A stretch of DNA of 64,000 bases from Leptolyngbyaceae cyanobacterium (lineage in GTDB: Bacteria > Cyanobacteriota > Cyanobacteriia > Phormidesmidales > Phormidesmidaceae), in assembly GCA_965263355.1 (NCBI GenBank), contig CBDHHL010000032.1, forward strand, positions 672,001-736,000, written 5' to 3'. Below, in pieces: positions 10,494-44,289 of the stretch. Under the pieces are notes generated by a model. That model saw only the letters and a program-made list of their open reading frames with translations, was not told where the DNA came from and did no database searches. Every line of letters begins with the position of its first letter. Within the stretch, counting starts at the first letter, position 1. Both the position numbers and the translations under genes were made by a program.

Positions 10494-10742
10494 ATGGTCA
10501 GAAAAAAACCTACCCAAGCCCACATCACCAAGCTCATTTCTAAAAGCCAGTCAGAATTCCTGAAAGCACGGACAAAAAAGCAGACGGAATACTATATGGG
10601 AGCAAAGTTAATTGAGGTAGGCATCAACCCCGATCAGGCGATTTATCGCTGGAAGGTTGTCGACAAAGGTCTAAAGGAAGAATGGACTTACAGCGCCTAC
10701 TGGGGTGATAGTAAGGAAAAAATAGAAGCGGCAGAGGGATAA
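10494..10742 (+). CDS. Conserved hypothetical protein
   Basis: 82-aa ATG ORF with protein-like composition (EYYMGAKLIEVG...WTYSAYWG). Confidence 0.7.
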   Translation: MVRKKPTQAHITKLISKSQSEFLKARTKKQTEYYMGAKLIEVGINPDQAIYRWKVVDKGLKEEWTYSAYWGDSKEKIEAAEG

Positions 10743-31618: not shown

Positions 31619-31844
31619 ATGCTTACAAATTCAGAATTCTTATAGAGTTTTCCCGAAACCACCTAACATCAGGGTGTATTTTTTAGTACTGGGATAGATC
31701 TTTATATTGGGGTAGACGCAATATAGTGCTCTGCACCGTAGTTAAAAATTGCGGCACCAACGAACAATTCATATTCCATTTGTGTGTAGATTAAACCTTA
31801 AACATGGTTTAACATTCCAAATCATTCACTAAAATACTTGTCCA

Positions 31845-33771: not shown

Positions 33772-34704
33772 CTAATTTAAACTCATCAGACTTGGCAAGT
33801 CGTTGAGCTTGCTAAAGCTAGCATCGGCTAGACGCTGTACGAGATCGCAAAATTGTCGCACAGGTGGTAAGCGCAGACGATCTTGCGTCGTTACCATAAC
33901 CACTTGACGAGTAAGAATAGGCGCAGTTGTACTGCGCACAGCTAAATCAGGATCGCGACGACTCTCTGCCAGAGCAGACTGGGGCAATAAAGCAATCATT
34001 TTGCCTTGACGCACTACACCCCGAAAGGCGTCAAGGGTATTGAGTTCTAAGGCCATTTTTAATTCTGTTTCAGGCACCTGAGATTGAACCAGTCTCTGCA
34101 TACCATAACCATCTTTAAAGACCACATGGGGATAGCGGGCAATTTCAGCCCAAGGTGCGGGACTATAGCTTGCTAAAGGATGATCAGCAGCCATCAGGAC
34201 TTCTACATGATCCTCATAGAGGGGAGTAACCGCCATCTCTTGAGAATTAGTCAGCATCGGATTATGCATCACAATGGCAATATCAACGAGACCATCGCGT
34301 AATACTTTGAGTGATCGATCACTACCCAATGCCGTAACCCGCAGCTGCACCTTGGGATAACGTTGACAAAATTGGGTAATGATCGGGGGCAAAAAATGAG
34401 AACACACTGATTGAATCCCCGCCACACAGAGTTCCGGCTGTCGTCCCTCTAATAAATCGGTAATTTCGCTGGTAGCTTGCTTCCATTCCTGACAAATACG
34501 CCGTGCTCTGGGTAATAACCGTTCTCCTCCAATCGTGAGCTTAGCCTGAGCCGTACGATGAAACAGGGGCATACCCAAGTCATCTTCAAGGCTGCGAATT
34601 TGTCGACTCACCGTCGATTGGGTAATACCGCACCGTCGAGCGGCTGCTTGAAAGCTACCTGTCTCGGCAATGGCTAGGAATGCTTGTAGCTGCTCTATAC
34701 GCAT
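33772..34704 (-). CDS. ntcB: LysR-type nitrite-responsive activator NtcB
   Basis: LysR HTH MRIEQLQAFLAIAETGSFQ; LRVTALGSDRSLKVLRDG; cluster context. Confidence 0.9.
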   Translation of the reverse strand: MRIEQLQAFLAIAETGSFQAAARRCGITQSTVSRQIRSLEDDLGMPLFHRTAQAKLTIGGERLLPRARRICQEWKQATSEITDLLEGRQPELCVAGIQSVCSHFLPPIITQFCQRYPKVQLRVTALGSDRSLKVLRDGLVDIAIVMHNPMLTNSQEMAVTPLYEDHVEVLMAADHPLASYSPAPWAEIARYPHVVFKDGYGMQRLVQSQVPETELKMALELNTLDAFRGVVRQGKMIALLPQSALAESRRDPDLAVRSTTAPILTRQVVMVTTQDRLRLPPVRQFCDLVQRLADASFSKLNDLPSLMSLN

Positions 34705-34775: not shown

Positions 34776-34817
34776 ACTCTAGGGAGCATCACCATCAGAT
34801 TTGGTACGTCTGGCTAC
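34776..34817 (-). promoter_or_regulatory. NtcA-activated class II promoter of ntcB
   Basis: Minus strand GTAgccagacgTAC (34817-34804), 22 nt, TAGAGT (-10). Confidence 0.8.
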
Positions 34818-37068: not shown

Positions 37069-38937
37069 GTGGTCACCGCATCCACTACTGAGAAAAAGGT
37101 AAAGCTTAATAAGTTTGAAAAATATAAGGCCGAAAAGGACGGTTTGGCAGTCAAGGATGAACTGCAAAAGTTCGCCGAGATGGGTTGGGAAGCCGTTGAT
37201 GAAACTGACTTAACCCAACGTCTCAAGTGGTTAGGTATTTTCTTCAGACCAGTAACTCCCGGTAAATTTATGCTGCGTTTGCGGATGCCCCATGGGCTGA
37301 TTTCAGCCCAGCAAATGCGGGTTCTTGCTGAAGTTGTCCAACGATATGGGGATGATGGCAGTGCCGATATTACCACCCGTCAAAATTTACAGCTGCGCGG
37401 TGTTCATTTAGAGGATATTCCCGATATTTTCTCTAGGATGCATGCTGTAAGCATGACTTCCATGCAGTCAGGGATGGATAACGTTCGCAATATTACAGGG
37501 TCACCGGTCGCTGGCATTGATGCTAATGAATTGATTGATACACGGGAGTTGGTACAAGCTGTTCAGGACATGATTACGAACAGCGGCCAGGGCAATTATG
37601 ACTTTACGAACTTACCTCGAAAGTTCAATATTGCCATTGAAGGGAGTACTGACAATTCGGTCCACGCAGAAATTAATGATATTGCCTTTGTACCTGCTTA
37701 CAAGGATAGCACCATTGGCTTCAATGTACTGGTAGGTGGATTCTTTTCCTCCACTCGCTGTGCAGCTGCTATTCCTCTAGGCGTCTGGGTTCCCCCTGAA
37801 AAGGGAGATGTGGTCGAGCTATGCCGTGCCATTCTCACGGTCTACAGGGATAACGGCTCTCGAGGTAATCGTCAAAAGACACGTTTGATGTGGCTAATTG
37901 ATGAATGGGGCATGGAAAAATTCCGAGCCGAAGTTGAGAAAAGTGTTGGTACTTCCCTGGCCATAGCAGCAACTGAAGATGCCTTAGATACTGACAAAAG
38001 AGATCACGTCGGTGTCTTTCCACAAAAGCAGGCAGGGCTTAATTACATTGGTTTACATGTTCCGGTGGGACGTTTACAGGCAGACCAAATGTTCGACTTA
38101 GCTCGTATAGCTGAAGTCTATGGTAGCGGCGATCTACGTCTTACGGTTGAGCAAAATGTCATCATTGCCAATGTACCTGACAATCGATTAGCTGCCTTTT
38201 TAGCTGAGCCTATCGTTCAGACATTTCCGATTCAACCGTCTTCCTTAGTAAGATCATTGGTGTCTTGTACGGGGGCCCAATTCTGTAATTTTGCTCTAGT
38301 GGAAACTAAGATGCAATCTTTGGCTCTGGCTCGACGCTTAGACTCAGAGTTAGACATTCCAGAACCTGTGCGCATGCATTGGACCGGATGTCCTAACTCC
38401 TGTGGTCAGCCCCAGGTGGCCCAGATTGGCATGATGGGTACCAAAGCGCGCAAAAACGGCAAAATGGTGCCTGCAGTGGATATTTACATGGGGGGTACTG
38501 TGGGGAAAGATGCCCACTTAGGTGAGCGTGTTATGCAGAAAGTTCCCTGTGACGAACTACCTGGTGTCGTACGTAAGTTACTAACTGAGAACTTTGGGGC
38601 TACGCTCAGGCCAGGTGTTGTGATTGAAGCCCCCACGGAGGCAGTGGTTAGCCAGTCAGAAACGCCTAAGGCCAAAAAGCCAGCTGTGATTATTTTTTCC
38701 AAGTCTGGTAAGGAGATCAACTGCGATGATAGTCAGTCAGTTCTTGCGATCGCAGAAGGCGCAGGTATTGATATTGAAAGCAGTTGTCAGTCCGGTTCCT
38801 GTGGTACCTGTAAGTTACCCCTGATAGAAGGCAATGTGCGCTACGAGGGTGACCCAACCGCCTTAGAGACTGGTGAGACAGGCTCAGTGCTGACCTGTAT
38901 TGCCCATCCAGAAGGCCGCTTAGTGATTGATGCATAG
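37069..38937 (+). CDS. nirA: Ferredoxin-nitrite reductase with C-terminal 2Fe-2S ferredoxin domain
   Basis: ITTRQNLQ, LPRKFNIA, SCTGAQFC and TGCPNSCG siroheme/4Fe-4S ligands; C-terminal CQSGSCGTC...LTC. Confidence 0.96.
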   Translation: MVTASTTEKKVKLNKFEKYKAEKDGLAVKDELQKFAEMGWEAVDETDLTQRLKWLGIFFRPVTPGKFMLRLRMPHGLISAQQMRVLAEVVQRYGDDGSADITTRQNLQLRGVHLEDIPDIFSRMHAVSMTSMQSGMDNVRNITGSPVAGIDANELIDTRELVQAVQDMITNSGQGNYDFTNLPRKFNIAIEGSTDNSVHAEINDIAFVPAYKDSTIGFNVLVGGFFSSTRCAAAIPLGVWVPPEKGDVVELCRAILTVYRDNGSRGNRQKTRLMWLIDEWGMEKFRAEVEKSVGTSLAIAATEDALDTDKRDHVGVFPQKQAGLNYIGLHVPVGRLQADQMFDLARIAEVYGSGDLRLTVEQNVIIANVPDNRLAAFLAEPIVQTFPIQPSSLVRSLVSCTGAQFCNFALVETKMQSLALARRLDSELDIPEPVRMHWTGCPNSCGQPQVAQIGMMGTKARKNGKMVPAVDIYMGGTVGKDAHLGERVMQKVPCDELPGVVRKLLTENFGATLRPGVVIEAPTEAVVSQSETPKAKKPAVIIFSKSGKEINCDDSQSVLAIAEGAGIDIESSCQSGSCGTCKLPLIEGNVRYEGDPTALETGETGSVLTCIAHPEGRLVIDA

Positions 38938-38980: not shown

Positions 38981-39021
38981 CTCCTCGGTAACAGTCTCTA
39001 CCGAGGAGCTTTTTGTTTTTT
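38981..39021 (+). terminator. Intrinsic terminator after nirA
   Basis: CTCCTCGGTA-N8-TACCGAGGAG followed by a T-rich tract. Confidence 0.8.
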
Positions 39022-39067: not shown

Positions 39068-39133
39068 ATGCAGATAATGCATTTCACCTATGCAAGAAAA
39101 AGATTACTCCATTGATCCAGTGAGGAATGTTAC
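39068..39133 (+). promoter_or_regulatory. NtcB pair plus NtcA-like site upstream of small ORF 39191
   Basis: ATGCagataatGCAT (39068), ATGCaagaaaaAGAT (39090), GTGaggaatgtTAC (39120); same 30-bp NtcB-to-NtcA offset as nirA and nrtP. Confidence 0.7.
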
Positions 39134-39190
39134 AGAAATGACCTAAGTGCCATGGGCATTATGTAGATAAATAAACCAGTTTTCTAATTG

Positions 39191-39355
39191 ATGGATAACC
39201 TGAAATCTTTGATACTACCTGCTTTCTTAGGCTTAACGGCAGGCGTTGCCCACGGCATTATTTCGCACCAAGTTGGGTTACCCATGTCTCTGACCGAGCA
39301 ATTACTCAGTCCCTTTATTGCCTCCGAAAAAGTTAGCTATTCTTTTGAAGACTAA
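39191..39355 (+). CDS. Small hypothetical membrane protein (54 aa)
   Basis: Not in track; MDNLKSLILPAFLGLTAGVAHGIISHQVGLPMSLTEQLLSPFIASEKVSYSFED; upstream NtcB/NtcA sites. Confidence 0.6.
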   Translation: MDNLKSLILPAFLGLTAGVAHGIISHQVGLPMSLTEQLLSPFIASEKVSYSFED

Positions 39356-39367
39356 ATTTCGTAAACA

Positions 39368-39381
39368 GTATTGTTCGTTAC
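39368..39381. promoter_or_regulatory. NtcA box upstream of small ORF 39432
   Basis: GTAttgttcgtTAC; no TAN3T at the canonical 22-nt distance. Confidence 0.5.
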
Positions 39382-39431
39382 AGAATAATTATGGGATGCT
39401 TGGACTGACGTTTTAGTTCAGGGTTATTTTT

Positions 39432-39641
39432 ATGGCTTCCCAAACCCGTATAATCTCTACCCAAACTTCTAGCCTGGATAAGGCTTTAACTGCATCTTTG
39501 GCAGCTATTGCTATGTTTATTGCTGGCTATACTGTAGTAAGAGTTTCTCTAGCTCAGCCTGCAAATACGGTTACTGAAACAAATGTAACAACTACTGTTA
39601 TCCCCCATCAGGCAGAGCTTTGGGCTGACTTTGCTGAATAG
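39432..39641 (+). CDS. Small hypothetical single-TM protein (69 aa)
   Basis: ATG ORF with one hydrophobic helix (ALTASLAAIAMFIAGYTVVRVSLA); T-ending codon bias as in expressed genes. Confidence 0.6.
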   Translation: MASQTRIISTQTSSLDKALTASLAAIAMFIAGYTVVRVSLAQPANTVTETNVTTTVIPHQAELWADFAE

Positions 39642-39698
39642 GAATTCAGTACGTAGCAGGGTATATAAATGCTATGTATCCGTTGTCTTTTCAGGCGA

Positions 39699-39760
39699 AT
39701 TCCAATAAATAAGGAGCGGATTGAGAGCATGCTCTCAATCCGCTCCTTATTTATTGGAAT
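39699..39760. repeat. Perfect 62-bp palindrome, no spacer
   Basis: 31-bp arms checked base by base around the central GCATGC. Confidence 0.95.
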
Positions 39761-39801
39761 ATTCATAGGGTTCTCAAAACTTAGGTACCTAGACTCTTTG
39801 A

Positions 39802-39894
39802 ATGCAAGAATCGAATTTGAACATGCAAAAACAGAATCAACCAGTGATAACAGTATCAAACAATACTTTTCTGCTTTTTGCTCATCGATAAAGT
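39802..39894 (+). promoter_or_regulatory. NtcB/NtcA promoter of nrtP
   Basis: ATGC-N7-GAAT at 39802 and 39823; GTAtcaaacaaTAC (39853-39866), 22 nt, TAAAGT (39889-39894). Confidence 0.85.
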
Positions 39895-40151
39895 TACTCC
39901 ATAGTGAGTTTACCTAACATTGCTTGTTTAGTTGTCTCTTATGAAACAAGCTTTCCAGGTATCGCCTGATATTGGTTTTACCTCGGAGGCATTCATTTGA
40001 GTGTCTAATCGCATGTTTGCTCACTATTGAAACTATTCACCATGTTGTTGGGTTCCGGTTGTGAACCTCAATGAGTGAGTTACCTAAAGCTTGATTTTCA
40101 ATCGAACTTTAGGACATAGAGAGTGTTTGTCTGTTTATGGGAATAGCATAG

Positions 40152-41756
40152 ATGCTAGGAGAGTTGTTTACTAAGGCCACTCAGGGCAGGTATAGGATAT
40201 TACACCTAACCTGGTTCGCCTTTTTCCTGTCGTTTGTGGTGTGGTTCAACTATCCACCATTTAAGACGACAATTGTTCAAGAGTTTGGATTGACACCTGG
40301 TCAAGCCGGCACGATTGGTCTGTGTAACGTAGCTTTGACGGTTCCTGCCCGAATCATCATTGGTATGTTGTTAGATCGCTATGGTCCTCGTCTAACCTAT
40401 TCTTTGCTGCTAATTTATGCAGCAATTCCCTGTATTATCTTTGCCTCTGCACAGAGCTTCAATCAGTTAGTGATTGGTCGTCTGTTGATGGGTATTGTGG
40501 GTGCAGGTTTTGTAATTGGTATCCGCATGACGGCTGAATGGTTCCCTCCCAAGGAAGTGGGAACTGCAGAAGGTATTTACGGTGGTTGGGGTAACTTTGG
40601 TTCCGCCTTCTCCGCCTTTACTATGGTTATCTTTGGTGTTGCGCTGACCTTCTTGCCCGGTGCGTTCAATTTTGGTGAGCCTCAAACATTTAAAATTTTG
40701 TTCTTCCCTGCATTTGAAACAGCAGTGTTGAACTGGAGATGGGCCATTGCTGGTAGTGGTATTGTTGCTGCTTTATACGGTACGTTCTACTACTTCAACG
40801 TAACTGATACTCCTCCTGGCAAAGTTTATCAGCGTCCCAAGAGTTCTCGTGGTTTGGAAGTAACTACCAAGCGTGACTTCTGGTTCTTGATGCTAATGAA
40901 TGTGCCTCTGACAGGCATTCTAATGGTATTGGCCTGGCGTTTGCAAAAGGTTGGTTTTCTTAGTCCGGCAGCGATGTACATCGCCATTATCTTCCTAATT
41001 GGTTTGTATTTGTTCCAGGCATATAACTGCTGGAGTGTGAACAAAGACCTGTTGTCTGGAGCTAAGGTTTACTCTGCTGAAGACCGCTATCGCTTTAAGC
41101 AGGTAGCTATTTTAGAGTTGACTTATATTGTTAACTTTGGTTCTGAGCTAGCAGTGGTAACCATTCTGCCTGCGTTCTTTGAGGGCACCTTTGGCCTTGA
41201 CAAGGCAACTGCAGGTATCATCGCCTCCAGTTACGCGTTTATGAACCTGATGTCTCGTCCCGGCGGCGGTATCATCTCCGACAAGATGGGTAGCCGTAAG
41301 TGGACCATGGTTGTTCTGACAGCTGGTATGGGTATTGGCTATTTATTGATGAGTACTGTAAATAGTGCTTGGCCATTACCTCTGGCAGTGATTCTGACCA
41401 TGGCTTGCTCCTTCTTTGTACAGGCATCTGAAGGATCTACCTTTGCGATTGTGCCTTTAGTTAAGCGTCGTGTGACTGGTCAGATTGCAGGTAACGTGGG
41501 TGCTTACGGTAACGTGGGTGCGGTCGCTTACTTGACGACTCGCCTGTTGCTTGTGGATGCAGCTGTAGCAGCTGCCGGTGAGGGTGGTACTCCCAACATG
41601 GCTGCCGTTAACTCTGGTTTCTTCCAGGTGCTAGGCATTACGGGTCTAATTGTTGCCTTTATCTGCGTCTTCTTCTTGGATGAGCCTAAGGGGTCATTCG
41701 CTGAAGCCCATGAAGGCGAAGATATATCTGTTCCAGATGCTTCCTACGCCAGCTAA
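40152..41756 (+). CDS. nrtP: MFS nitrate/nitrite permease NrtP (NarK family)
   Basis: LHLTWFAFF, AEGIYGGWGNFG, FGSELAV, GNVGAYGNVGA nitrate-signature motifs. Confidence 0.95.
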   Translation: MLGELFTKATQGRYRILHLTWFAFFLSFVVWFNYPPFKTTIVQEFGLTPGQAGTIGLCNVALTVPARIIIGMLLDRYGPRLTYSLLLIYAAIPCIIFASAQSFNQLVIGRLLMGIVGAGFVIGIRMTAEWFPPKEVGTAEGIYGGWGNFGSAFSAFTMVIFGVALTFLPGAFNFGEPQTFKILFFPAFETAVLNWRWAIAGSGIVAALYGTFYYFNVTDTPPGKVYQRPKSSRGLEVTTKRDFWFLMLMNVPLTGILMVLAWRLQKVGFLSPAAMYIAIIFLIGLYLFQAYNCWSVNKDLLSGAKVYSAEDRYRFKQVAILELTYIVNFGSELAVVTILPAFFEGTFGLDKATAGIIASSYAFMNLMSRPGGGIISDKMGSRKWTMVVLTAGMGIGYLLMSTVNSAWPLPLAVILTMACSFFVQASEGSTFAIVPLVKRRVTGQIAGNVGAYGNVGAVAYLTTRLLLVDAAVAAAGEGGTPNMAAVNSGFFQVLGITGLIVAFICVFFLDEPKGSFAEAHEGEDISVPDASYAS

Positions 41757-42048: not shown

Positions 42049-44289
42049 ATGCGATCTATGGCCGATGGAGCAAAAACATTATGCCCCTACTGCGGTGTAG
42101 GATGTGGTCTTGATGTATTACCCCCTGCTCAACCTGGTCGCCCTGTCAATCGTGATGAGCAAGGTAATCCGGTTTGGCAAGCACGGGGCGATCGCAACCA
42201 TCCATCAAGTAAAGGTCAGGTATGCATTAAGGGGGGCACCATCGGTGATTCTCTCGATAAGGGGCGGTTACTTTATCCGATGATGCGAGAGTCTCTCGAT
42301 CAGCCACTACAGCGAGTATCTTGGGAGCAAGCCCTCAATCGCATCACGTATGAGATTCGTAAAACACTGACAGAGAAAGGTCCCGAAGCTGTCGCCATGT
42401 ATGGTTCCGGCCAGTTTCAAACAGAAGACTATTACACTGCCCAAAAGTTGTTGAAAGGGTGTTTAGGTACCAACAACTTTGATGCTAATTCACGACTATG
42501 TATGTCATCTGCTGTTGCGGGGTATATTCAAAGTTTTGGTTCTGACGGTCCCCCTTGCTGTTATGACGACTTAGAACAAACTGACTGCGCGTTTTTGATT
42601 GGCACCAACACCGCCGATTGTCATCCAATTGTGTTTAATCGTCTAAAGAAATACCACAAGAAAAATCGCAAGGTAAAAATGATTGTGGTGGATCCGCGCC
42701 ACACTGACACAGCAAAAGTTGCAGATTTACATCTGGCCATCAAACCAGGGACTGATATTGCCTTACTTAACGGCATAGCTTATCTATTGCTAAAGCACGG
42801 CTGGCTCGATCCTGGGTTTATCGAGTCCTGTACTGATGGCTTTAGTGACTATGCTCAGGTAGTGAAAAGCTATCCTCCCGAACGAGTGACTGAGATCTGT
42901 GGCATCACCCTGAGTGAATTGGCCAAAGCGGCTGAGTGGTGGGGTAAATCTAAACGAGTGCTATCACTGTGGTCAATGGGTGTGAACCAGTCCACAGAAG
43001 GAACTGCTAAGTGTCGCACTATCATTAATTTGCACCTGATGACGGGCAACATTGGCAAGCCTGGTGCTGGGCCATTTTCGCTTACAGGCCAGCCTAATGC
43101 TATGGGGGGACGTGAAGCCGGTGGTTTGGCCCACATTCTGCCCGGCTACCGACTGGTGAAAAATGACGAGCATCGACAGGCGGTGGAAAAAGTATGGCAG
43201 GTGCCGGAGGGGAGTATTTCTCCAGTGCCTGGTCTGGCAGCTTGGGATATGATGCTGGCCTTAGAACGAGGAGATATTGATGTCTTTTGGGTGGCGGCTA
43301 CTAACCCAGCCGTGAGTATGCCAGATATCAAACGGACTCAGGCGGCACTGAGAAAATCGCCGTTTACGATTTGCCAGGATGCTTACTATCCAACAGAAAC
43401 TGTGGCCTTTGCCCATGTGGTTTTACCCGCTACCCAGTGGGGAGAGAAAGCGGGGGTGATGACAAACTCTGAGCGGGTGGTCACTTATTGTCCAGCATTT
43501 CGAAATCCGGTGGGTGAAGCCAGGGCTGACTGGGAGATTTTTGCTGAGGTAGGCCGTCGTTTAGGGTTTGAAAAACAGTTTGCTCAGCAGACATCGGCAG
43601 AGGTGTATGACGAGTTTATTTCGCTGACGGCGGGGCGCTTGTGTGATTCAACCGGTCTAAGCCATGAGCGACTGGCCAAAGGTCCCATTCAGTGGCCCTG
43701 TTCTGCGAGGGAAAATGATGAGATTGCCTTTGGTAAGCATGATAAGCGGCTGTATACAGACTATCGCTTTGCCACACCCAATAAAAAAGCTAAGTTCTGT
43801 GCGTTTCATATTAAGGGGTTAGCTGAGCCTCCCAATGAGGATTATCCATTTGTGCTGACCACTGGTCGCCTCTATGGTCACTGGCATACTCAAAGTCGCA
43901 CTGGTCGGATTGAAAGGATTACAAAGAAATATCCAGAGCCGTTGCTGGAGGTAAATCCCCGGGATGCTCAGTTACTGGAAATTCAGTCAGGGGAATGGGT
44001 AGAAATAAGGTCTCAACGCAGCTTTGCCCAGTTAAAAGTGCTGGTCACCCAAAACATTACCCGAGGTACGGTGTTTATGCCCATGCATTGGGGCTTTCTC
44101 TGGGGGGACAACATGGAGGTAAATGCATTGACTCATCCAGAAGTCTGTCCGATTTCATTGGAGCCGGAATTGAAGGCATGTGCGGTTCAAGTCATACCAA
44201 TTCCAGAACCTCAGGGTACTGATGAGGCCACCATTAAGTCCCGATTTGATGCAGCCCAGACAAGGACAATGGAGCCGATAAAGGTTTAA
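42049..44289 (+). CDS. narB: Ferredoxin-dependent assimilatory nitrate reductase
   Basis: CPYCGVGC...C 4Fe-4S motif, NSRLCMSSA Mo ligand, [18 protein letters not shown]...HWHT. Confidence 0.96.

Follow-up and report, generated by a model that had tools for sequence, protein, structure and literature searches.

Two adjoining microprotein genes in a cyanobacterial nitrate cluster and their link to the NrtP permease

The nitrate assimilation cluster described here belongs to a Leptolyngbyaceae cyanobacterium (assembly GCA_965263355.1, contig CBDHHL010000032.1), from which one stretch of 64,000 nucleotides (nt), hereafter the window, was analysed. Its plus strand carries nirA, a gap of 1.2 kb, nrtP and narB, and its minus strand a cnaT-like gene, ntcB and a HEAT-repeat gene. 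The gap holds two small genes, A and B, encoding proteins of 54 and 69 amino acids (aa), each preceded by its own NtcA box, in a position typical of activation for A and in a repressor-like position for B. What emerges is a genuine microprotein family that is uncharacterised, and a module of two genes tied to NrtP. That A is the nitrate-induced positive partner and B the opposing partner, or brake, of a pair directed at NrtP-dependent uptake is a tentative reading, which we hold at slightly less than an even chance; some action of B on NrtP is considered probable. An earlier note on this DNA had described A as a single-gene unit; it overlooked B, whose own, oppositely placed NtcA box adjoins A, and that part of its description is given up here.

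Gene A (39191..39355, plus strand) is a real gene under purifying selection. It is present directly 3' of nirA in 17 of 79 NirA loci, at 68-91% identity, and all 17 are among the 19 loci with a NirA identity of at least 85%; in the two others of the 19, the contig ends in nirA (L010) or unrelated sequence follows nirA (L005). Among 18 sequences, the length is 54 codons in 17, the frame contains no stop (the other five have 36-109), and the ratio of nonsynonymous to synonymous divergence (dN/dS, Nei-Gojobori) is 0.087 pooled and 0.048 for codons 1-38, with a diversity of 0.26, 0.10 and 0.52 at the three codon positions. The ATG open reading frame (ORF) with a GxxxG-containing hydrophobic helix that the earlier note had pointed out here is thus a conserved and uninterrupted gene. 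Synonymous divergence (dS) of A equals that of NirA (2.2 and 2.1 in the same 12 taxa), which means that there is no nucleotide-level constraint on A. That the functional product is an RNA, or that the ORF is spurious, is hardly credible: a 30-nt stretch of 70% complementarity between the 3' part of A and the nrtP leader, as well as weak start signals, could be cited for it, but the dS, the dN/dS and the constant length all oppose it, and no Rfam match was found over A. The saturated dS also led us to reject antisense pairing between A and the nrtP leader.

Profile searches for A returned 38 clusters among 381 candidates at close range, and 32 representatives at 50% identity at a distant one, 30 of which are 49-160 aa long. 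Three proteins of the distant search, two long ones (1139 and 1389 aa) and one of 160 aa, do not enter the alignment, whose 52 members measure 41-63 aa. None of these 52 matched a Pfam family at an expectation value (E) of 0.01, and A has no Pfam, NCBIfam or PDB family. The exact protein of the window is absent among 15 billion called proteins, so that its earlier description as unannotated stands for this protein; it does not extend to the orthologues, since the named members are all annotated 'hypothetical protein' at NCBI.

The protein carries a hydrophobic stretch at residues 7-25 (mean Kyte-Doolittle value 1.77) with the motif G14-xxx-G18-xx-H21-G22, in which G14 and G18 are invariant in 52/52 aligned members, H21 is conserved in 88% and G22 in 94%. 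The AlphaFold model places helices at 3-27 and 34-51 (predicted local distance difference test 74), and A is probably a single-pass membrane microprotein with a predicted transmembrane helix followed by a second helix. GxxxG is more often a mark of helix-helix packing, and this counts against a different and very improbable reading, in which A oligomerises through a glycine zipper, alone or with B, to form a His-lined pore for nitrite or protons that offsets weak nitrite transport by NrtP or nitrite build-up. The four conserved residues all lie on one helix face, control by NtcB would link A to nitrite, and the affinity of NrtP for nitrite is lower (PMC9430850), all of which would suit a pore; neither a Pfam or PDB homologue of A nor structural support for such an assembly was obtained.

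As judged from its sequence, the promoter of A fits the type that is co-activated by NtcA and NtcB. A tandem NtcB box (ATGC-N7-GCAT-N7-ATGC-N7-AGAT, 39068..39104, plus strand) is followed on the same strand, after a 15-bp spacer, by an NtcA box (GTG-N8-TAC, 39120..39133), assigned from its family-wide conservation and spacing, with a predicted centre at about -41.5, an activating position, and then by a predicted -10 element (CATTAT, 39157..39162), the NtcA box lying 22-23 nt before the -10 as in other promoters of this type. All coordinates of the earlier note were found correct on re-checking: ATGC-N7-GCAT at 39068, ATGC 22 bp on at 39090 (opening the degenerate palindrome ATGC-N7-AGAT), GTG-N8-TAC 30 bp further at 39120, and the identical 30-bp geometry at nirA (36789/36819) and nrtP (39823/39853). 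It had also called the -10 weak; the sequence is as given, and an nAnnnT at that offset is conserved across A promoters.

The published NtcB box, ATGC-N7-GCAT-N7-ATGC-N7-GCAT, spans -100 to -64 in the cryo-electron microscopy complex on the Anabaena nirA promoter, where 15 bp separate it from the NtcA box at -48 to -35 (bioRxiv 10.1101/2022.10.10.511513). This box, which starts 52 bp 5' of the NtcA box, was scored over all ~64,000 positions of the window. Position 39068 gave the top score (14/16), with an NtcA box at exactly +52; nirA scored 12/16 with like spacing and nrtP 9/16, and three other sites with 12/16 lack an NtcA box there. Given the match to the published box, the two sites of the earlier note are better read as a single tandem box serving an NtcB tetramer; the spacing match to the Anabaena complex predicts a transcription start site (TSS) for A at ~39168. 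The resemblance to the Anabaena nirA promoter includes the tandem box, the spacer, the NtcA position at ~-41.5 and the presence of ntcB in the same cluster; by contrast, the A promoter drives a microprotein gene and not an assimilation operon, has GTG for GTA, and has a degenerate last NtcB half-site.

The composite ATGCA-N25-GT-N9-AC occurs three times in the 64 kb, at the promoters of A, nirA and nrtP only. Markov shuffles gave a mean of 0.43 and reached 3 in 1/100, in a test that is not clean because the pattern was derived from the same sites; a perfect ATGC-N7-GCAT by itself is no rarity (5 in the window). Across the family, the distal palindrome is perfect in 10 of 17 orthologous loci, GTN-N8-TAC lies 5' of 58/58 A genes, against a mean of 7.4 and at most 15 after shuffling, and NtcB-like palindromes accompany the NtcA box of A in 21/58, including free-standing pairs. 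An nAnnnT is found 22 nt past the NtcA box in 38/58 and 23 nt past it in 28/58, which is the activating arrangement, and TG occurs at +20/+21 in 89%/86% of A promoters.

Gene B (39432..39641, plus strand) begins 76 bp 3' of A and is present in 16 of the same 79 NirA loci. It is likewise a coding gene under purifying selection, with a dN/dS of 0.089 (codons 1-43, 17 sequences) and 29-60 stops in the other frames; the synonymous sites of A and B are both as diverged as those of NirA. Homologues number 287 among 2546 candidates and include Xenococcaceae and Pleurocapsa. The protein has a predicted transmembrane helix (18-36), a flexible, low-complexity linker and a C-terminal V-x-P-H-Q-A-x-L-W motif; AlphaFold models helices at 3-40 and 60-68, and F29 and W64 are invariant in 50/50 members. 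No Pfam, NCBIfam or PDB match was found for B (0 Pfam families for 50 members at E 0.01), and A and B are unrelated in sequence (hhalign probability 0.5). Some leads for the two proteins were discarded: those from the ESM Atlas, with best scores of 0.85-0.88 and a winged-helix lead below 0.9, and PDB 6M0P (E 0.15). As observations on B itself, its C-terminal motif is doubled in genomes of Prochlorococcus size and in some of marine Synechococcus size (as at L097 12542-12847 and related loci), and what by eye appears to be a decayed second copy of B follows A in genome G268 (L094, about 10500-10720).

The control region of B is built differently. Its NtcA box (GTA-N8-TAC, 39368..39381, plus strand), recognised family-wide, has a predicted centre at about -32, and a predicted extended -10 (TG-G-GATGCT, 39395..39400, plus strand) is placed from an offset conserved across B promoters and would put the TSS of B at about 39407. 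GTA-N8-TAC lies 5' of 68/69 B genes (shuffled mean 3.1, maximum 8), and a -10-like hexamer follows the box by 12, 13 or 14 nt in 33, 23 and 12 of 66 promoters, and by 22 nt in 1/66; the centre near -32 is derived from the distance of 12-14 nt. In Synechocystis, activated NtcA sites concentrate at -41/-44, whereas repressed ones are scattered and only slightly more frequent near -30 (PMC5714215). We infer that B may be repressed by NtcA. A glutamine-II riboswitch (RF01704) precedes B in 4/4 Prochlorococcus-size loci and in 0/16 other loci, with none in the window. Binding of glutamine raises gifB translation, and switches of type 2 are found mostly ahead of IF17-like genes (PMC6212724). In the logic of its control, B resembles the genes of IF7 and IF17 (gifA/gifB) and IF17-like genes, with an NtcA box in a repressing position and, in Prochlorococcus-size genomes, a glutamine-II riboswitch (PMC6212724, PMC5714215). 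The IF proteins, however, are soluble DUF4278 inhibitors of glutamine synthetase, whereas B is predicted to be membrane-anchored, lacks DUF4278 and tracks a transporter.

The adjacency of A and B extends from Leptothoe-type filaments to genomes of Pleurocapsa type and of picocyanobacteria. Among 71 distinct loci outside the picocyanobacteria, 60 have A no more than about 0.6 kb from B, on its upstream side except in two, counts that overstate independence because the loci include close relatives. Four of the 11 B loci without A have fewer than 300 bases of contig upstream, and A was located elsewhere in the genome in 3/3 checked genomes missing it beside B. The adjacency survives rearrangement, including reversal of the gene order (L094, L198), and the pair occurs inside nitrate clusters in three different gene orders. 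Narrow-profile searches of the phylum undercounted both genes (A 3/401, B 7/401), and a wider profile, made for B only, found many more. Weak B matches in the 401-genome sample lie beside moaA in three 1.7-Mb genomes, whose nirA-to-moaA cassette order is that described for Prochlorococcus (PMC6370341), and between cnaT and nirA in one 2.7-Mb genome; the best A-profile match among 1735 frames was, in each such genome, the ORF directly upstream of B (E 0.04-0.09). Of the picocyanobacterial loci, 24 were inspected for such an ORF, and 23 carry one with hydrophobic GxxxGxxHG upstream of B; a profile of these ORFs matched the A profile with an hhalign probability of 67.6 (E 5e-5, 16 columns). The dN/dS of the A-like helix is 0.18 and 0.24 in two divergent picocyanobacterial groups, against 1.1 off-frame; in two Prochlorococcus-size groups, whose divergence is too low to be informative, that of the ORF is 0.36 against 0.48 off-frame and undefined, respectively. 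From motif and position, homology of the picocyanobacterial ORF to A is probable.

Presence and absence of B follow nrtP. The counts below include relatives and are phylogenetically non-independent, and NrtP is mostly marine, which tempers the case for NrtP as the target. In a genus sample of 93 small genomes, full-length B occurs in 19/20 genomes with narB and in 0/73 without, and one genome (G431) has two narB and two B. In a picocyanobacterial family sample of 201 genomes, with B in 67, nrtP in 72, narB in 150 and nirA in 176, all 67 B-carrying genomes have nrtP, B is found in 0/78 genomes with narB and no nrtP, and it is absent from at least 26 genomes with nirA and no narB. In a sample of 81 genomes from the order of the window's relatives, 49 of 50 genomes with B have nrtP, and 12 of 13 without nrtP lack B; the exception, G733, is also without narB. 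In addition, nrtP is present in each of the three genomes whose pair lies outside the cluster, and A was not found in 5/5 genomes without nrtP, of which the four tested have narB. B is therefore inherited with nrtP, not with narB or nirA. The earlier note had left the target between NrtP and NirA; NrtP is the likelier of the two, and these absences of B and A speak against NirA.

The link also holds where nrtP stands alone. In 11 loci nrtP has neither nirA nor narB in the 9-11 kb examined, and in ten of these a complete B-like ORF is arranged head to head with nrtP; GTA-N8-TAC stands 55-70 nt upstream of every such ORF. Within this set of loci (L209-L219), the stand-alone nrtP and the divergent B-like gene share NtcA and NtcB-like sites in the gap between them; of these copies, that of L212 is split in two frames and that of L219 apparently truncated. 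As a separate observation, what is left of B in five narB-less genomes of the genus sample (G484, G471, G453, G465, G428) is its 3' part or a copy with a frameshift. It looks as though the cassette had been deleted up to a point inside B, a picture that incomplete assemblies could explain in some cases.

It could be argued that the pair has a role in marine or saline habitats under nitrogen control, its link to nrtP reflecting a shared habitat and hitch-hiking on the nitrate cassette. NrtP is indeed mainly marine (PMC9430850, PMC10945777), and the pair is free-standing in many genomes, in counts that are again non-independent. This explanation is nevertheless improbable: B was lost with the cassette within a single genus, leaving the five truncated remnants, at least 26 genomes with nirA and no narB in the family sample lack it, B-like genes follow stand-alone nrtP, and three gene orders place the pair inside nitrate clusters.

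Divergence separates the two genes. NrtP of Leptothoe-type loci is of two types, one with 90-93% and the other with 74-76% identity to that of the window, and in 17 linked loci the divergence of B tracks that of NrtP (partial r 0.84 given NirA, 0/2000 permutations) and not that of NirA (0.15, 294/2000), while that of A tracks NirA (0.44, 1/2000) and not NrtP (0.17, 185/2000). The two NrtP types are seen to alternate at one locus among genomes with 90-95% identical NirA (L004, L011, L053 and L109 as opposed to L001, L003, L047, L049 and others), which suggests that nrtP has been replaced allelically together with B.

These data bear on the possibility that only B acts on NrtP, A belonging independently to the NtcA/NtcB regulon, having a different target (for example NirA, NarB or the electron supply from photosynthesis, along the lines of NirP1 or PirN) and only sharing the neighbourhood of B. 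Besides its divergence, A has a promoter separate from that of B, is apart from B in three genomes, and does not accompany the B that adjoins stand-alone nrtP. NirA, however, also marks vertical descent, so that the correlation is no proof of binding; A was not found in the 5/5 genomes without nrtP, four of which have narB, and its adjacency to B is kept through rearrangements. Moreover, NirA and NarB are soluble whereas A is mostly a hydrophobic helix, and A bears the distinguishing features of neither NirP1 nor PirN, discussed below. An independent A is thus considered rather improbable.

Published expression data are available for Synechococcus WH7803, in which the gene order is nrtP, narB, narM, RS12280, RS12285 (a membrane protein) and moaC (PMC9430850), the same as in our narM-A-B-moaC loci L159, L161, L168 and L169. 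By gene order, RS12280 and RS12285 would be A and B. Compared with ammonium, RS12280 rises 17.8-fold under nitrogen starvation and 18.2-fold in nanomolar nitrate, and nrtP 20.4- and 19.1-fold (PMC9430850), which fits activation of A and does not demonstrate repression of B. In four marine metatranscriptome runs on the Prochlorococcus-like locus L097, contigs cover the A-like ORF in 4/4, which is not proof of transcription. The summed contig depth over B peaks at 215,879 (X1) and 158,451 (X2), against 63 and 22 next door, and is flat in X5 and X9; such contig depth cannot rank genes, and the depth over B is only a hint.

A number of observations weigh against A and B as opposing partners of NrtP. 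RS12285 appears in neither differential-expression table of PMC9430850, which fits poorly with strong repression by NtcA, and a high depth over B, if real, would be awkward for a gene repressed in nitrogen-poor water. A conserved TATAGT-like hexamer 30 nt past the box of B in Leptothoe-type loci offers an alternative -10, which would move the TSS of B to about 39425. NrtP can do without the pair, since B was not found in 5/72 (family sample) and 19/68 (order sample) nrtP-carrying genomes, the former five staying negative with the wider profile. No A was found near the stand-alone nrtP and B-like genes in 11/11 loci, nor genome-wide in 2/2 tested. The tracking of NirA by A belongs here as well: A was kept while NrtP and B changed type; its tie to NrtP is indirect, and the case for a direct, type-specific contact between A and NrtP is weakened. 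The co-divergence of B and NrtP, whose genes are 0.5 kb apart, could reflect a single recombination tract, and the signal is unclear in six unlinked genomes. Outside the Leptothoe-type clade and the picocyanobacteria, the pair lies mostly away from nitrate genes and has no recurring neighbour, and the assignment of A in picocyanobacteria comes down to a 16-column match plus position.

Part of this evidence would suit A and B as accessory subunits of NrtP acting in the same direction, in assembly, targeting or high-affinity uptake, with a constitutive promoter for B. All of the co-occurrence evidence is in keeping with such subunits, the WH7803 gene at the place of B shows no significant change with nitrogen source (PMC9430850), and NAR2 is essential for the targeting and activity of plant NRT2 (PMC4232926). 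Subunits of this kind are nonetheless unlikely: NrtP occurs without B in 5/72 and 19/68 genomes, and the NtcA box of B, kept almost throughout at a spacing that is not activating, together with the riboswitch of the Prochlorococcus-size loci, makes up a signature of gifB-like inhibitors.

The reading of A and B as opposing partners would work as follows. When nitrogen is short and nitrite present, NtcA and NtcB would switch on A together with NrtP, while NtcA would repress B from its box at about -32, placing B under a regime opposite to, or flatter than, that of A; in Prochlorococcus-size genomes, glutamine would turn B up through the riboswitch. Both proteins would be located in the cytoplasmic membrane, where the Gly-rich face of the A helix (G14, G18, H21, G22, S25) may pack on the B helix or on NrtP. 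A would then stabilise or de-repress NrtP, and B would damp it when ammonium is plentiful. A more specific version, in which a push-pull pair sets NrtP activity post-translationally, the NtcA/NtcB-induced A activating or freeing the permease and the NtcA-repressed, glutamine-on B shutting it, is doubtful. A complex prediction of NrtP, B and A gave a score of 0.08 for partner A, against a mark of 0.32, and was used neither for nor against the proposal.

Several known systems invite comparison. AcrZ, SgrT and MgtS are small membrane-protein modulators of transporters. A and B resemble this class, in which SbtC also falls, in their size below 70 aa and their co-regulated transporter; each is also a real coding gene whose product has a single hydrophobic helix. 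To our knowledge, none of these modulators acts on a nitrate permease of the NarK family, and none comes as a pair under opposite regulation. Like the pair, NAR2/NRT3 of plant and algal NRT2 is a small partner inherited with a nitrate transporter of the NarK/NNP family of the major facilitator superfamily (PMC4232926). It serves as the working analogy for the pair, but differs in size, with ~200 aa against 54 for A and 69 for B, neither of which has a Pfam match, and in that NrtP exists without the pair, which comprises two proteins whose control looks opposite.

Two other small proteins of nitrate assimilation can be set apart from A. NirP1 of Synechocystis PCC 6803 is likewise small, controlled by NtcA and linked to nitrate assimilation, and had been raised in the earlier note as a possible homologue. 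It is described as a protein of 76-86 aa with a conserved C-terminal 50 aa, four beta strands, an invariant Cys and three Trp, which binds NirA, is absent from Prochlorococcus and is repressed by NtcA from a site over the TSS (PMC10907346). By contrast, A is shorter and modelled as two helices with no strands; the window's A has neither Cys nor Trp, and any Cys is found in 10/52 and three Trp in 1/52 members of its family; and its NtcA box lies at activator distance from the -10. A thus departs from NirP1 in length, Cys/Trp content, fold and regulation, and the suggested homology is not upheld. PirN (Ssl2814) is also a small protein encoded in a nitrate cluster, but it carries DUF1830 and is itself reported as lacking in most marine picocyanobacteria (PMC13205821), whereas A and B have no Pfam family and are enriched there.

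As for the surrounding genes, the nearest NirA relatives (85-91%) come from Leptothoe, Adonisia and related Leptolyngbyaceae. ntcB (33772..34704, minus strand), encoding the LysR-type nitrite-responsive activator, matches NtcB of PDB 8H3V (phmmer E 1.6e-125) and Pfam LysR; a canonical GTA-N8-TAC lies upstream of it (34804-34817), and another between a FIST-domain-like gene and a 247-aa ORF (31676-31689). The further perfect ATGC-N7-GCAT palindromes are at 2224, 9397, 29699 and 36476, the last upstream of the HEAT-repeat gene. nirA (37069..38937, plus strand) encodes a ferredoxin-nitrite reductase (NCBIfam PRK09566 above cut-off) with a C-terminal 2Fe-2S ferredoxin domain (Pfam Fer2, residues 545-614). 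NirA matches extend over the full length in Leptothoe-type and several other loci, which suggests that the NirA-ferredoxin fusion is common to these; many NirA relatives end near residue 514. A hairpin resembling an intrinsic terminator, with a 10-bp stem and a T tail, follows nirA (38981..39018, plus strand) and is assigned by consensus match only.

Downstream of B lies a perfect, loopless palindrome of 62 bp (39699..39760, 31+31 nt), likely a transcript end or processing hairpin; besides a terminator or processing hairpin, it could be a small palindrome that is mobile, or an artefact of assembly. A stem of 13-20 bp is found between B and nrtP in 9/15 relatives, within 150 nt of the stop of B in eight, and the sequences differ. 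The 82-aa frame at 39669-39917 was rejected as a gene: it derives from the palindrome and gave weak partial matches, one with a stop. A pattern scan of the window places an NtcB half site and NtcA box at 39823..39866 (plus strand) as the nrtP promoter, a site found 308-356 nt 5' of the ATG in most relatives; the nrtP leader is apparently long, ~250 nt (about 39901-40151), and gave no Rfam match. nrtP itself (40152..41756, plus strand; TIGR00886 above cut-off) encodes a major facilitator superfamily nitrate/nitrite permease of the NarK family, the target proposed for the pair on the strength of co-occurrence, and is followed by the nitrate reductase gene narB (42049..44289, plus strand), identified by Pfam molybdopterin oxidoreductase domains.

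No description of the A or B family was found in the literature searched, from which subscription papers were mostly absent. Hypothetical genes of the Prochlorococcus nitrate cluster go by the names narX1 and narX2, and B may already have a placeholder name. Likewise, no accessory or regulatory protein of NrtP was found described, and none for NrtP is mentioned in the available portions of PMC11848123, PMC10470740 and PMC10945777. In freshwater cyanobacteria, ammonium shuts the ATP-binding cassette nitrate transporter through NrtC and PII (PMC10945777), and NrtP is the permease of most marine cyanobacteria (PMC9430850, PMC10945777). A module whose NtcA boxes are conserved but differ in placement, and which even the smallest marine genomes inherit along with nrtP, now provides named candidates for the control of NrtP, and adds two genes to a nitrate cassette that is usually drawn from nirA to moaA (PMC6370341). 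If the push-pull proposal were true, the pair, overlooked at the edge of the nitrate cassette, would do in marine cyanobacteria, among them Prochlorococcus that use nitrate, what NrtC and PII do as the ammonium brake on NrtABCD, and it would be a bacterial parallel of the plant NRT2-NAR2 system.

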